From an uncultured Acidobacteriota bacterium (lineage in GTDB: Bacteria > Acidobacteriota > Vicinamibacteria > Vicinamibacterales > 2-12-FULL-66-21), in NCBI GenBank assembly GCA_963820905.1, contig CAWGBU010000002.1:366144-430143 (forward strand): a stretch of DNA of 64,000 bases, in the 5' to 3' direction. The first letter of the stretch is position 1; every line of letters starts with the position of its first letter. The position numbers and the translations under genes are program-made. Below, piece after piece: positions 953 through 62,690 of this stretch. Below the pieces are notes generated by a model. The model was given only the letters and a program-made list of their open reading frames with translations, was not told the DNA's origin and searched no databases.

Positions 953-1040
953 TCAGCTTCCAGCTTCCAGCTTCCAGCTCCCAGTTGGGAAAAGCTGGAA
1001 GCTCGTAGCTGGCAGCTGGAAGCTGGCAGCTGGAAGCTTT
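953..1040. repeat. Imperfect palindromic tandem hexamer array, (CAGCTT)n on the left and (AAGCTG/CAGCTG)n on the right, in a divergent promoter region
   Basis: Read directly: cagcttccagcttccagcttccagctcccagttgggaaaagctggaagctcgtagctggcagctggaagctggcagctggaagctt. It lies between the sigma start (889, minus) and the PHP gene start (1059, plus). Confidence 0.8.
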
Positions 1041-1058
1041 TAACCTACACTGCCAGCT

Positions 1059-1748
1059 GTGCTGAAGACAGAGCTTCACGCGCATACCGACGCGGACCCG
1101 GCCGACCTCATCGACCACAGCATCCGCGACCTCGTCGACCATGCCGTATCGCTGGGCTATCAGGCGCTGGCGGTGACGCTGCACGATCGGTACTTCGATC
1201 CGGGCCCGCACGCGGCGTATGCGAGCGAGCGGGGGCTCGTGCTGATTGCCGGCATCGAGCGCACGATTCAGCGGCGCCACGTGCTGCTCGTCAATTTTCC
1301 GGCGTCGAGCGCGGACGTCGGGAGCTTCGAGGATGTCGCGCTGTTGAAGCGGCAGTACCCGGACGGGCTGATCGTGGCGCCGCATCCGTTCTATCCGATC
1401 CCGAGCGCGCTCGGCCGTCTTGCCGAACGCCACGCCGCGCTCTTCGACGCCGTCGAGGTCAACGCGATGTATACGCGGTATCTCGATTTCAACCGCCGGG
1501 CGATCGCGTGGGCGCGCGCGAACGGCAAGCCGCTCGTCGGCAACACGGACCTGCACCTGCTGCCGCAGATGGGCACCACGTACTCGCTCGTCGACGCCGC
1601 ACCGAACGCCGATTCGGTCTGCAAGGCGATTCGCGATGGACGTGTGACCGTGCAGTCCGAACCGCTCTCGACAATCAATGCCGTGCGGTTGTTCTCGAAG
1701 ATGTGCTGGGGCGGGCTCAAAGGCCGTCTCGGCCGTCGTCTTCGTTGA
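1059..1748 (+). CDS. PHP-domain metal-dependent phosphoesterase
   Basis: The 229-aa ORF has the N-terminal ELHAHTD motif and histidine/aspartate pattern typical of PHP (polymerase/histidinol-phosphatase) domains. Confidence 0.65.
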   Translation: MLKTELHAHTDADPADLIDHSIRDLVDHAVSLGYQALAVTLHDRYFDPGPHAAYASERGLVLIAGIERTIQRRHVLLVNFPASSADVGSFEDVALLKRQYPDGLIVAPHPFYPIPSALGRLAERHAALFDAVEVNAMYTRYLDFNRRAIAWARANGKPLVGNTDLHLLPQMGTTYSLVDAAPNADSVCKAIRDGRVTVQSEPLSTINAVRLFSKMCWGGLKGRLGRRLR

Positions 1749-1791
1749 CTCCCCTTCTTCGCTCGCTTACAGTGCGGGAAGGGGGAGCCGT

Positions 1792-4700
1792 ATGACGTTC
1801 AGGTCGTATTCGGGAAGGCGTCTGCTCGCATCCGTGATCGGCGCCTGCTTCGCCGTCTGCGCATACACCGCGCCGGCGCGCGCGCAGAGCGCGACGGGAT
1901 CGATCGAAGGCACGATCGTCGATCAGACGGGCGCGCTGATGCCGGGCGTTACGGTGACCGCCACGCAGTCCGCCACCCGGGCGTCCCGCACGGTCGTGAC
2001 CGACGAGAACGGCATCTTCCGCATCCCGCTGCTGCCGGTCGGCGTCTACGACCTCACGGCCGAGCTCGCCGGCTTCTCAGTCCCGGAAGCTGCCGGAGAT
2101 CACGCTGACGATCGGGCAGACGGTCACGCTGAACGTGCAGATGGCGGTCACGGGCGTCGCCGAAACCGTCAACGTCCCGGGCGGCACGCCGATCATCGAG
2201 ACGAGCCGCACGCAGGTCAGCTCGACGGTCGACGGAAGCGTCCGTGCAGAACCTGCCGGTCAACGGCCGCAACTTCATCGATTTCGCGCTGCTGACGCCG
2301 GGCGTGACGCGCGACGTCCGCACCGGCGACATCAGCTTCGCCGGGCAGCGCGGCACGCTCAACAGCCTCGTCGTCGACGGCGCCGACAACAACAACACGT
2401 TCTTCGGACAGACGCCCGGCCGGACCGGCTCGGCGCGCGCGCCGTATCAGTTCAGCCAGGACGCGGTGAAGGAGTTCCAGGTCAACTCGAACTCCTTCTC
2501 GGCCGAGTATCGGCCGCGCCGGCGGCGCGCGTCATCAACGTCGTCACCAAGTCGGGCACGAACGAGCTGCACGGCTCGGCCTTCGAGTTCTATCGCGACA
2601 AGGCGCTGAACGCGAACAACGCGATCAACGAGCTGAACAACCGGCCGAAGTCGCCGTACCACTACAACCAGTTCGGCGGCACGCTCGGCGGGCCCGATCC
2701 GGCGCAACCGGGACTTCTACTTCTTCAACTACGACGGCCAGCGCAACACGCAGCCGAACGTCGTCTTCCTGAACCTGCCGGCCAACACGCCGAACGACGC
2801 CGGCGACGCCGGCCGGGATCGCGCGGCTCGCAGCCGCTCGCCGACAGCTGGAACCGCAGGCTCGATCAGGACGTGTTCCTCGTCAAGACGGATCACGAGC
2901 TGAACGACGGCGAACCGGCTCACGCTGCGCTACAACCATCAGAACTTCACCGGCGAGGGATTCGAGAGCGGCGGCGCCCAGAACGCGTTCGAGCACACCG
3001 GCGCGTCGATCGTGAAGACGCGGACGTTCAACGCGAGCTGGACGAGCGTCGTCGGCGCGACGCTCTTCAACGAGCTCAGGTTCCAGTATGCGCGCGGACA
3101 AGGAGCCGGGGAGGCCAACACCGACGAACCCCGAGGCCGTCGTCCAGCAGAGCGGGACGACGGTGCTGACGATCGGCCGCAACAACTTCAGCCCGCGCGA
3201 GACGACGATCAAGCGCTGGCAGATCGCCGACACGGCGACCTGGCTGCGCAGGGCAGCACAAGCTGAAGGGCGGATTCGATTTCCAGTTCGACGACATCCT
3301 CAACCGCTTCCCCGGCTTCTTCAGCGGCTCGTACACGTTCCGCAGCCTCGCGTCGTTCGCCGGCGGCCGGCCGAACGCCGCGAACGAATCCTATCAGCAG
3401 AACTTCGCCGGGACCGGACACGACCGGGCGCCGAGACGCGACCCGGACCTCCGCGAGTACTCGTTGTTCGTCGCAGGACGAATGGAGGCTGACGCGCGAC
3501 CTCACGGTCAACCTGCGGGCTGCGCTACGACCTGATGAAGACCGAGGCGCCGCCGGTGCGCAATCCCGATCCGCAGCTCGCCGCGGCCGACATCGACACG
3601 AGCCGGCTCGACGCCGACACCAACAACTTCGGGCCGCGCCTCGGGCTCGCGTGGAGCCCGCGGGACGCGCGCTACGTGGTGCGCGGCGGGTGGGGACTCT
3701 TCTACGGCCGCACGCCGTCGATCATGCTCGGCACTGCCCACTCGAACAACGGCGATCAACATCGTGTCGCTGACGTTCACCGGCGACGCGGTTCCGACCT
3801 ATCCGCAGAACTTCTCGAGCATTCCCAGCACCGGGAGTCGCGGCGCGGCCGAACATCTTCTACATCGACCAGGACTTCGCCAACGCGCGGCTGATGCAGG
3901 CGAACGCCGCGGTCGAGTGGCAGATCCAGCGCAACACGAGCCTGACCGTCACGTATCTCTTCGTCGACGGCATCCAATCTTCCGCGATCGATCGATCGCA
4001 ACCTCGGCACGCTCGGCTCGCGCACGTTCACGGTCGCCGGGACGGGCAAGACGTTCCCGTATCACTTCTTCGGACGCCGATCGGCCATTCGCGAACTTCC
4101 AGCGCGTGATCGCGTTCGAGTCGACCGCCGAGTCGCGCTACAACGGCCTCACGCTCGAGCTGAATCGGCGCTTCGCGAATCATCTGCAGTTCCGCGTCGC
4201 CTACACGCTCGGCAAGGTCGACGACACCGTCCCGGACGCGACCGCGGTCGTGCCCGGCAACGCCGGCGACGACGTGAAGTACGCGTCGAACCCGAACGAT
4301 TTCGACGCCGATCGCACCGTCGGCAACAACGACCAGCGGCATCGCTTCGTGCTGAGCGGCGATCTACAACACCAACGGGCTCGCGAGGGGCCTCGACGGG
4401 ATTCACCGGCACGCTCCTCCGGACTGGTCGTTCAGCGCCATCTTGACCGCGCAGTCGGGGCAGCCCTACACGGCGCGCGTCGGCGCCGTCGATCTGAACG
4501 ACGACGGCAACACCCGCAACGACATCGCGCCCGGCACCGACGCGCAACCAGTTCCGGCTGCCGTCGGTCGTGACGTTCGATCCGCGGATCGCCCGCGACA
4601 TGCCGCTCGGGCCGCGACGCGCGTGCAGCTGATCTGGGAAGCGTTCAACCTGTTCAACCGCGACAACATCACCGGCGTCGACACGACGTACTACAGCGTG

Positions 4701-62200: not shown

Positions 62201-62334
62201 AGCGCGTGATTCGGGACGATGACGTGGATGGGAAGGAGCGTCTCGGTCGAGCGCTGTTCCCGAATCGCCGCCTCGACCTGCGCCACGAGTTCAGGTGAGA
62301 CCGGCCAGGGCAACGAAGGCTTCGTGGCAGGCAT
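59253..62334 (-). CDS. AddB-like helicase-nuclease partner (PD-(D/E)XK nuclease with a Cys cluster), carrying one frameshift near 61770
   Basis: The N-terminus (MPATKPSLPWPVSPELVAQVEAAIREQ...) is in one frame up to ...YRRAAEAVA. The remainder (PLEAAGIVLVGDALES... through the C-terminal CPYRHF...CEYCDYLDIC Fe-S/nuclease motifs) is in a +1-shifted frame. The junction gaagcggttg|ccgctc is consistent with a 1-nt indel. Confidence 0.7.
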
Positions 62335-62395
62335 GGCAGTAGCTGGTCGCGAACACTATGTCGAGCGGTCCGCGCGGGAATAGACCGAAGGGGTT

Positions 62396-62472
62396 TGGCG
62401 CGCCCGGAGGGACTCGAACCCCCGACCTACGGCTTCGAAGGCCGGCGCTCTATCCAACTGAGCTACGGGCGC
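62396..62472 (-). tRNA. tRNA-Arg (anticodon TCG inferred)
   Basis: Reverse complement GCGCCCGTAGCTCAGTTGGATAGAGCGCCGGCCTTCGAAGCCGTAGGTCGGGGGTTCGAGTCCCTCCGGGCGCGCCA. The anticodon loop is CTTCGAA (one C/T mismatch at the base of the anticodon stem). The 5' half is nearly identical to the other tRNA-Arg. Confidence 0.8.
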
Positions 62473-62690
62473 AAATCAGTCGACAGCCACACAGTCGTCA
62501 GTCGGCAGTCGACGGTCGTCAGTCCTAGTCGACAGTCACAGTCGACAGTCGACGGTCGCAGGTGATCGTCATCGTAGCACAACGACTACCGACTGCCGAC
62601 TGTGACTGTCGACTGAGACTGCCGACTGCACGACTGCCGACTGTCGACTGTCACAGTCACTGTCATCTCTTCTTGGCCGCTCAATTTCGT
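62473..62690. repeat. Palindromic tandem hexamer array, (CAGTCG)n then a central spacer then (CGACTG)n, 5' of tRNA-Arg(TCG); it overlaps the 3' end of the methyltransferase ORF
   Basis: aaatcagtcgacagccacacagtcgtcagtcggcagtcgacggtcgtcagtcctagtcgacagtcacagtcgacagtcgacggtcgcaggtgatcgtcatcgtagcacaacgactaccgactgccgactgtgactgtcgactgagactgccgactgcacgactgccgactgtcgactgtcacagtcactgtc. Confidence 0.85.

Follow-up and report, generated by a model that had tools for sequence, protein, structure and literature searches.

Tandem heptamer arrays of unrelated units share a 7-nucleotide period in the presumed tRNA leaders, intergenic spacers and a kinase gene of an Acidobacteriota bacterium

A 64,000-nucleotide (nt) stretch of DNA from an uncultured soil bacterium of the Acidobacteriota, order Vicinamibacterales (contig CAWGBU010000002.1, positions 366,144 to 430,143; hereafter the window) contains about ten tandem arrays of 7-nt units. 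The nearest homologues of its proteins also carry a Vicinamibacterales annotation. The strongest regularity among these arrays is their period and not their sequence: unrelated units share the same 7-nt register in this host lineage, in its relatives and in phage contigs. We infer that they are heptanucleotide simple-sequence repeats of the long class (LSSRs), generated and resized by slippage together with template switching and tolerated in leaders and loops, and we put the probability of this reading at roughly 55%. The occurrence of period-7 arrays built from entirely different units, with hardly any arrays at other periods, points to a process that acts on the period rather than on the sequence. 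Block duplications, ragged array ends, gain and loss between strains, and the turnover of units at a fixed site are likewise how a mutational process behaves.

The arrays were delimited with Tandem Repeats Finder (TRF) and by reading the sequence. A1 (945-988, plus strand; about five CAGCTTC units, 95% matches at period 7) and A2 (992-1040, plus strand; seven AAGCTGG units) are the left and right arms of an inverted pair and face each other. B1 (4806-4840, plus strand; about five GGCTTTR units) has its inverse in B2 (5678-5707, plus strand; about four YAAAGCC units). Two arrays carry GGTTCAR on the sense strand: C1 (6140-6201, plus strand) with about eight units, and C2 (16118-16193, minus strand) with seven units followed by two of CCAGAGT, so that the plus strand of C2 reads two GACTCTG units and then seven of YTGAACC at 16140-16193. 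The remaining four belong to one family. Array D (14762-14884, minus strand) has about 17 CAGTCGN units on the coding strand, which is CGACTGN on the plus strand. Arrays E (55733-55830, minus strand; about 13 units) and F1 (62477-62559, minus strand; about 12 units) have CGACTGN on the strand of the adjacent tRNA gene and CAGTCGN on the plus strand. F1 is the proximal arm of an inverted pair whose other arm is F2 (62581-62665, minus strand; about 11 units, GCAGTCG on the tRNA strand and CGACTGN on the plus strand).

The initial annotation of this DNA described these elements as hexamer repeats. Every array that it listed is present at, or within a few bases of, the coordinates it gave, but TRF and lag-7 autocorrelation both give a period of 7 instead of 6, and the supposed hexamers are the conserved cores of heptamers. 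TRF returns a period of 7 for every array or, as higher-order periods of that repeat, 14, 21 and 59 nt, which reflect block duplication within the arrays. Self-matching of at least 80% occurs at 54 positions at lag 7 (35-nt windows) and at none for every other lag from 3 to 12. Arrays with at least four copies number nine in the window and zero in first-order Markov shuffles, in agreement with the initial view that they are not random, and period 7 is the only one enriched. Each unit consists of a conserved core of five to six bases plus one or two variable bases, as in GGTTCA+R, CGACTG+N and N+AGCTGG; conservation is 80-100% in the columns of the core and 43-60% in the wobble column. At least four unrelated unit families (CAGCTTC, GGCTTTR, GGTTCAR and CGACTGN) coexist in the window, whose GC content measures about 66% rather than the 68% first quoted. 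The proposed architecture of a forward array, a spacer and an inverse array is confirmed for three pairs (954-984/992-1038, 62477-62559/62581-62665 and 4806-4840/5678-5707), of which the last is weaker than the other two and has its arms 840 bp apart. These arrays have the properties of heptanucleotide LSSRs, namely head-to-tail 7-nt units, an excess over what composition predicts, and copy-number polymorphism at the strain level. They do not resemble CRISPR arrays, as the units are 7 nt long, contiguous and free of spacers.

Length variation is evident when the window is compared with a sister strain, represented by contig_216144 of ENA assembly ERZ25039469 (loci L001, L014 and L017), which was assembled independently and matches the window at 96.6-98.4% identity across about 40 kb. 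About 13 units make up array E in the window, against about five in L014, where the strains are about 98% identical; the array lies within an alignment break that also holds about 0.8 kb of window-only sequence. F2 is about 49 nt (about seven units) shorter in L014, and this results in a different C terminus of the methyltransferase encoded there. The lengths of A1/A2, B2, C1, C2 and F1 are equal in the two strains, and B1 differs by 2 nt at its edge. C1 in L017 has three A/G swaps at the wobble base, and A2 also has swaps at its wobble position. Few indels of at least 5 nt separate the two strains over the aligned 40 kb, and one cluster of them falls in F2. In a pair of strains from another lineage (L009 and L010, JGI metagenome contigs with 99.8% identity over 20.7 kb), a single copy of a 19-nt sub-repeat in the array region accounts for 19 of the 20 gap positions. 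This concentration of strain differences within arrays identifies them as indel hot spots, and the check for length variation that had been proposed at the outset is therefore positive.

The same comparison bears on the quality of the assemblies. Both the window and the sister contig have numerous single-base frameshifts, whose positions differ between the two. A gene for an outer-membrane beta-barrel protein of about 990 amino acids (window 1678-4796) is broken into pieces in both assemblies; addAB is whole in the window and fragmented in the sister contig (L014 11134-17645). These frameshifts are probably consensus errors of the assembly, as would fit long-read data, and an annotation of metagenome-assembled genomes (MAGs) would contain false pseudogenes here. 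Given their frequency, single-base indels are not trustworthy evidence of strain differences, and differences of several units are. Errors of this kind might suggest that the arrays themselves were produced by misassembly of a repetitive region, the outcome that the initial annotation said would overturn its view. This explanation is extremely improbable and is refuted by the independent assemblies: all nine arrays are found in that of the sister strain, every array is present on both sides of the comparison, and orthologous arrays occur in several JGI metagenome assemblies and one NCBI MAG with identical sequence across samples.

Nine of the ten arrays lie in non-coding DNA or at gene ends, and the tenth lies inside a Ser/Thr protein kinase gene (gene contexts were assigned with Pfam and ARAGORN). 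A1 and A2 are located between a divergent ECF sigma factor gene (293-889, minus strand) and a PHP gene (1059-1748, plus strand). B1 begins 10 nt past the stop codon of the outer-membrane beta-barrel gene, and B2 is a short distance 5' of a promoter-like TTGACA (5735-5740) of padR. C1 occupies the 66-nt spacer between padR and a permease gene and stops 3 nt short of the permease ATG (6205). C2 reaches the ATG (16123) of a sigma-like gene that precedes the Ser/Thr kinase gene. Both GGTTCAR arrays are on the sense strand of the downstream gene and directly 5' of its start codon. A sense-strand array only a few nucleotides 5' of a start codon occurs in C1, C2 and the L002 orthologue; the other seven arrays are not placed in this way. 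The contexts proposed initially (the ECF sigma/PHP and sigma-like/hypothetical intergenic regions, the padR-permease spacer, the 5' sides of both tRNA-Arg genes, and one coding sequence) are thus borne out, as is the description of a family enriched in non-coding DNA beside promoters and start codons and often palindromic.

Two arrays adjoin tRNA genes in a similar arrangement. Array E abuts the 5' end of tRNA-Arg(CCG) (55656-55732, minus strand), and F1 lies between a -10-like motif and tRNA-Arg(TCG) (62396-62472, minus strand); both tRNAs are detected by ARAGORN and Rfam. The motif is the extended -10-like 11-mer TGTGCTACGAT (TGnTAnnnT), which has exactly two matches in the window, one 5' of each tRNA-Arg gene: at 55845-55855 (minus strand) upstream of E, and at 62571-62581 (minus strand) in the loop between F1 and F2. 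At both genes the CGACTGN array fills the stretch from TGTGCTACGAT to the tRNA. The tRNA-His gene has TGcTAGAAT about 85 nt upstream and a non-repetitive leader. Scans for sigma-70 consensus promoters and terminators around both tRNA-Arg genes gave no match, and the promoter assignment is consequently based only on the shared TGnTAnnnT-like motif. With this motif as promoter, E and F1 are most simply read from the sequence as the transcribed 5' leaders of the two pre-tRNAs. F2 overlaps the 3' end of a methyltransferase open reading frame (ORF; 62586-63494), which reads about 25 codons through the array. At the Rfam gathering score, only three tRNAs match in the window.

Array D is inserted into the activation loop of the kinase, between DWG and GTRGFMAPEQ, and it confirms that one array is inside a coding sequence. 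The kinase gene (14332-15389, minus strand; identified with Pfam and by tblastn with an intact 318-amino-acid orthologue) appears frameshifted: positions 1-153 of the Pfam Pkinase model match before the array and positions 157-198 after it in a different frame. The array of sister locus L001 has two more bases and an unbroken reading frame, and it encodes DWGAAKTVDGRQSGVESLSRQSQSTVDSPGRQSAVDGHSRQSTVDGRSQTADGMVIGTRGFMAPEQ, a total of 32 extra residues. The kinase orthologues in L002 and L008 (318 and 319 amino acids) have no array. Those in L009, L010 and L011 have 375 amino acids and carry an in-frame heptamer insert of 57 residues (L009) at the array D site. This insert encodes seven-residue repeats (LPIENADCR) from the heptamers CGATTGC/AGACTGC, a related unit in the opposite orientation to array D. 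At the array-free site, L002 has ACGGACGACGGCCG in place of the ACAGTCGACGGTCG of the window, and ACGGACGACGGCCG looks like a sequence that could have seeded the repeat. The kinase gene is preceded by the gene for the sigma-70-like protein (15386-16123; weak Sigma70_r2 and ECF matches), and its product is predicted to be membrane anchored; the two ORFs overlap by 4 nt in L002, and the gene pair is kept in all relatives sampled.

If changes in unit number toggled genes on and off through promoter spacing or frameshifts, the arrays would be classical contingency loci. A 7-nt unit within an ORF does shift the frame unless changes come in threes, the kinase is out of frame in the window and in frame in the sister strain, and array length does differ between strains. 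However, the kinase difference consists of two single-base indels with no change in unit number. These are probably consensus errors, like the other frameshifts in both assemblies, because the frame is broken at different places in the two strains; alternatively, the window copy may be a decaying gene. The arrays that vary in length lie in a tRNA leader and at the 3' end of a gene. The phase-variable promoter spacing suggested initially likewise does not fit the geometry, since the consensus scan revealed no promoter spanning any array and none can be placed between a recognisable -35 and -10; the tRNA-leader arrays lie downstream of a -10-like motif and others abut start codons. Contingency switching is therefore a very unlikely function of these arrays.

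The position of an array, and sometimes its unit, is kept in relatives that are about 80% identical. The spacer before the sigma-like gene is 48 nt long in L002-L007, where the flanking genes have about 80% nucleotide identity to those of the window, and it has about 2.5 copies of GGTTCAA directly before the ATG. The rest of this spacer cannot be aligned to the window, and L008, L009 and L012 have no GGTTCAA there. The padR-permease spacer of L009 is 15 nt long and has no C1 array. In the spacer between the outer-membrane protein gene and padR, the window has the GGCTTTR pair whereas L009 has an inverted pair of CGATTGC-type heptamers of about 330 bp; judged from these sequences, the architecture and position are kept and the unit is replaced. 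Every relative sampled has other period-7 arrays with other units (GGCTCCA, TTGGGAG, CTGGCCC) and almost no arrays at periods 5, 6, 8, 9, 10 and 11 (none at 5, 6, 9, 10 and 11).

Conservation is also found at the tRNA-Arg genes. These are adjacent in L015 and L016, where tRNA-Arg(TCG) has a short leader behind a TATGAT -10 element. The spacer before tRNA-Arg(CCG) contains an inverted pair in L015, with about nine copies of CAGTCGN and then about 12 of CGACTGT, and about four units in L016. L170 has the TGTGCTACGAT motif and a degenerate CGACNNN leader before tRNA-Arg(CCG), and the motif is also kept in L014. The CGACTGN unit and its orientation 5' of this tRNA are common to L015, L016, L170 and the window. 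The final unit that touches the tRNA, CGAYTGT(T), is present in the window, L014, L015, L016 and L170 and absent from L169. Short sequences that resemble the unit occur in the tRNA-Arg(TCG) leader as well: L015 and L016 read TGCGACG and TTCGACCG, and the window array starts with TGCGACCGTCGACTG. A search of genome contigs with AddA and with the exact 77-nt tRNA-Arg(TCG) found no relative, and a search of metagenome contigs with AddA returned one 4.2-kb contig with an unrelated 3' flank. The addA and addB genes (55936-61772) separate the two tRNA-Arg genes in the window and in the sister strain. In L015 and L016 the tRNA-Arg genes are 124-188 nt apart and addAB is elsewhere, and the junctions of this rearrangement coincide with the array-bearing tRNA leaders.

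In the window, a module composed of the -10-like motif and a CGACTGN array is found 5' of both tRNA-Arg genes, and the short TATGAT-driven leader of tRNA-Arg(TCG) in L015 and L016 is what would be expected if such modules, or the arrays by themselves, had spread as mobile or recombination-borne cassettes of a MITE- or REP-like kind. The related units in opposite orientation at one site of orthologous kinases would also agree with this origin, as would the likeness of the inverted pairs to palindromic REP-like elements and the presence of CGACTGC/GCAGTCG pairs in GC-rich viral contigs. Yet at the pair flanks that were read, neither defined ends, nor terminal inverted repeats other than the arrays, nor an obvious target-site duplication were noticed. 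Pfam found no transposase, RAYT included, among the array-adjacent ORFs scanned, which are a minority of the ORFs of the window. Array ends are ragged and lengths vary continuously, and the unit-like seeds at empty orthologous sites favor growth in situ or events guided by microhomology. Dispersal as cassettes is accordingly a decidedly unlikely origin.

Under the slippage reading, strand slippage in a 7-base register would amplify short native seeds, such as the CGAC-containing tRNA-Arg leader and the DGR codons of the kinase loop. The resulting arrays would then expand and contract in blocks of several units, and intrastrand template switching might convert some of them into inverted pairs. 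They would persist where they are tolerated, namely in leaders that are transcribed, in spacers between cistrons, at the ends of genes and in one surface loop of a kinase, whose total length would be held at a multiple of three. The tRNA-Arg arrays would make the pre-tRNA leader about 35-100 nt longer. The gain or loss of units from strain to strain would alter the length or structure of a leader, or the tail of a protein, and would not switch genes on or off.

Paired arrays could form long RNA or DNA hairpins, and the two inverted pairs with short spacers are predicted to fold into long, nearly perfect ones. A1 and A2 give a hairpin of about 40 bp, and the RNA fold of 940-1050 has an energy of -63.4 kcal/mol, with z scores of -7.8 (plus strand) and -7.3 (minus strand). 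The F1-F2 region (62473-62670) folds at -128.7 kcal/mol (z = -10.6), and the inter-tRNA spacer of L015 folds at -104 kcal/mol (z = -9.0). The GGTTCAR arrays are less structured than shuffled sequences (z = +2.0 and z = +0.6). The C1 RNA lacks structure (z = +1.98): of 200 shuffled versions, 197 fold as well or better. These arrays may therefore provide unstructured purine/U-rich spacers directly 5' of start codons. Pairing of AGGUUC with the 3' region of 16S rRNA (GAACCU, helix 45) was considered and rejected, because the GAACCU bases form the stem of this helix and its dimethyl-adenosine loop.

Scans of IMG/VR for triple core-N patterns at period 7, with permuted cores and period-8 versions as controls, extend the period-7 regularity to viral contigs. 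The CGACTG-N triple pattern occurs at 31 loci, and four permuted cores occur at 32-38 loci each. The period-8 controls give 14 loci (CGACTG) and 51 loci (GGTTCA), and the chance expectation, estimated from an assumed collection size, is about 1-2 loci per pattern. The similar numbers for CGACTG and its permuted cores indicate that heptamer arrays of unrelated cores are similarly common in viral contigs. The recurrence of CGACTG in GC-rich viral contigs had suggested a special role for this core, an idea that was dropped when permuted cores proved equally frequent. Contigs that bear arrays tend to hold many of them, with several units; 1.06 Mb of such contigs contains 365 period-7 arrays and 63 for four other periods together. 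The GGTTCA-N triple pattern occurs at 120 or more loci. In viral contigs, 34 of 136 arrays with the TGAACC arm lie within 30 nt of an ORF start, against 8 of 136 with the opposite arm, which is the reverse of the orientation in the window. The idea that GGTTCAR arrays always serve as sense-strand leaders to start codons was accordingly dropped as a general rule.

L166 (an IMGVR_UViG contig of 12.9 kb) encodes a Mu-like portal and a cement protein and is thus a genuine fragment of a phage, and it has inverted GTTCAA-N/TTGAAC-N array hairpins in nearly every intergenic gap examined. It belongs to a set of phage contigs (L071, L078, L089, L117, L142, L148 and L166) with 9-20 heptamer arrays each. 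The arrays in these contigs form GTTCAA-N/TTGAAC-N inverted pairs with purine-rich loops, flanked by GAGCATG and AGAGAGC arrays, and occupy almost all intergenic gaps in a module of structural genes. A literature search for phage heptamer arrays of this kind found nothing relevant.

Several observations weigh against the reading of the arrays as slippage products. One unit recurs at unlinked loci (CGACTGN at three, GGTTCAR at two that are 10 kb apart, and the CGATTGC family at two in L009), which purely local slippage does not predict. The last unit beside tRNA-Arg(CCG), CGAYTGT, is kept in five lineages or strains, and GGTTCAA persists before the sigma-like start in relatives with about 80% nucleotide identity, where the remainder of the spacer cannot be aligned. 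A wobble base within a fixed core is unlike the homogenisation expected from simple slippage. In viral contigs the GGTTCA core is at least 3-4 times commoner than its permuted controls, and some phage contigs have arrays in nearly every intergenic gap, where neutrality is hard to reconcile with a compact genome.

A rival reading is that a trans-acting factor (a protein, the ribosome or the RNA-processing machinery) would recognise hexamer cores spaced 7 nt apart on RNA or DNA, with a small regulon of tRNA-Arg leaders, 5' untranslated regions (UTRs) and intergenic hairpins. GGTTCAR is on the sense strand 5' of two start codons and CGACTGN on the sense strand 5' of two tRNAs, and unit, position and orientation are all kept before tRNA-Arg(CCG) (L015, L016, L170) and the sigma-like gene (L002). 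By analogy, a fixed core with a wobble base resembles a binding site with one free position. Compared with permuted controls, GGTTCA arrays are in excess in viral contigs, and factors have been proposed for two other repeat families, the TAACTGA repeats of Beggiatoaceae (PMC4679880) and the paired repeats of Geobacter (PMC2700814). On the other hand, at least four unrelated units in 64 kb and more in each relative would require many factors, and the unit is replaced at the orthologous spacer before padR. Copy number differs 2.6-fold between strains that are about 98% identical, CGACTG arrays are no commoner than permuted cores in viral contigs, and the viral arm at ORF starts is mostly TGAACC, opposite to that of the window. 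No candidate binding protein was identified. Recognition by such a factor is thus an unlikely explanation, though one to be kept in view.

A further and quite unlikely possibility is that Vicinamibacterales have in common with phages from comparable environments a dedicated system for building or reading arrays in a 7-nt register, such as a protein that binds the repeats as RNA or DNA or a repeat-generating enzyme activity. If so, arrays of a core hexamer plus a free base would, together with their hairpin pairs, constitute a separate class of cis element that organises pre-tRNA leaders, 5' UTRs and intergenic processing or termination sites, with turnover of the unit and retention of period and position.

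The arrays can be compared with several kinds of repeat in other genomes. Cyanobacterial STRR units are CCCCAGT, TTGGTCA or CAACAGT. The unit sequences of the window match neither these nor TAACTGA, with which the CGACTGA variants share just ACTGA. REP/BIME-type intergenic palindromes are of unique sequence, as are the RNase III hairpins that separate the early genes of phage T7. Like them, the paired arrays would give long intergenic hairpins at gene ends or between co-transcribed genes (the L015 inter-tRNA spacer and the gaps of L166). The window elements differ from REP/BIME in being tandem arrays, and no RAYT-type transposase was found in the few ORFs scanned with Pfam.

The closest parallel is with the heptanucleotide LSSRs of prokaryotes (Mrazek, Guo and Shah 2007, as summarised in PMC4679880 and PMC4692102). 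According to these summaries, heptanucleotides are an over-represented class of long SSR in several GC-rich bacteria, for which polymerase slippage has been proposed, and so the initial claim that such repeats are unusual in a GC-rich genome does not stand. As far as they are described there, these LSSRs share with the window arrays head-to-tail 7-nt units, lengths beyond chance, a mostly intergenic location, a preference for period 7, abundance in some GC-rich genomes and variable length. The window arrays differ from that description in belonging to Acidobacteriota (Vicinamibacterales), in their several coexisting unit families with a fixed core and a wobble base, in their many inverted pairs, and in their additional occurrence in pre-tRNA leaders and a kinase loop.

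The GGGAATC repeats of Xanthomonas and GGGGAYT repeats of Nostoc (Rehm et al. 2015, PMC4692102) are also multi-locus intergenic heptamer arrays, with positions kept between related species, lengths and sequences that vary, and some inverted repeats capable of forming stem-loops. Those units are G-rich, form G-quadruplexes and are dominated by one unit per genome, whereas the units in the window have no G-runs, and at least four of them occur in 64 kb. The TAACTGA repeats of marine Beggiatoaceae, cyanobacteria and Bacteroidetes (MacGregor 2015, PMC4679880) resemble GGTTCAR in being sense-strand heptamers a few nucleotides from start codons, and they too have occasional copies inside ORFs; an RNA-binding factor was proposed for them. 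They have 2-6 copies and are almost never inverted, whereas the window arrays reach 7-17 copies, are often inverted and also lie 5' of tRNAs. The paired 7- and 8-nt repeats of Geobacter metallireducens, labelled "putative global regulator binding sites" (Aklujkar et al. 2009, PMC2700814), similarly form multi-locus families, mostly as opposite-strand pairs with variable spacing, and their 4-5 tandem units occur between and occasionally within genes as in the window. Their copy number is small and fixed, and the window arrays are longer and variable, with unrelated units. A literature search for heptamer repeats in Acidobacteria found no relevant report. The arrays are thus of a kind that is already known, and poorly understood, from Xanthomonas, Nostoc, Beggiatoaceae and Geobacter; what is new is a well-documented example in Acidobacteriota.

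The window contains other repeats and segments in addition to the heptamer arrays. A second dispersed repeat is REP-like and consists of a CCGGCTAAAGCCGGA hairpin and CACTACAG. Copies of this element are located at 5541-5564, 5611-5634, 9812-9819, 11536-11543, 14281-14288 and 43723-43730, and CACTACAG occurs six times against 0.4 expected. At two of these copies the window and the sister strain differ by an indel (a 34-nt insertion at 14280; an alignment break at 9770-9813), and translation of the element yields recurrent spurious "SGFSRT / RLKPDTT" peptides in long false ORFs. The 840 bp between B1 and B2 (4841-5677) contain long GC-rich inverted repeats (50 nt that are 84% complementary and 31 nt that are 87% complementary), with AACGCTGTAG / CTACAGCGTT near the two ends. 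This segment has no Pfam or Rfam match, Rfam gives nothing significant over 4700-5800 at E <= 1, and the orthologous spacer in L009 does not contain it. An inserted element is one possible identity for it, and a structured RNA that has escaped annotation is another.

Two larger differences separate the window from the sister strain. About 0.77 kb directly 3' of tRNA-Arg(CCG) (54889-55655) is absent from the roughly 98% identical strain, in which the sequence after this tRNA joins window position ~54889. A 22-nt tandem repeat found by TRF at 54711-54758 was assigned to this segment, which resembles a small insertion at a tRNA 3' end. Conversely, L001 has a 2.9-kb insertion (13035-15896) with a beta-lactamase-family gene and an FmdA/AmdA gene between the deacetylase and AsmA genes, and the window lacks it (13118-13128).

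Heptanucleotide repeats are an odd, over-represented class of bacterial microsatellite, and the window adds the phylum Acidobacteriota to their range. Arrays are also hot spots of assembly and annotation error, which creates false frameshifts and false C-terminal tails in MAGs. These arrays offer natural experiments: one orthologous site has three or seven units or another unit altogether, a pre-tRNA leader has been extended from about 35 to about 100 nt by repeats, and a kinase activation loop has twice gained an in-frame heptamer array. If the arrays are neutral, then they would be a direct read-out of a 7-base slippage bias in the replication machinery. If instead they tune the structure or processing of leaders, then they would be a cheap source of expression variation for slow-growing soil bacteria.

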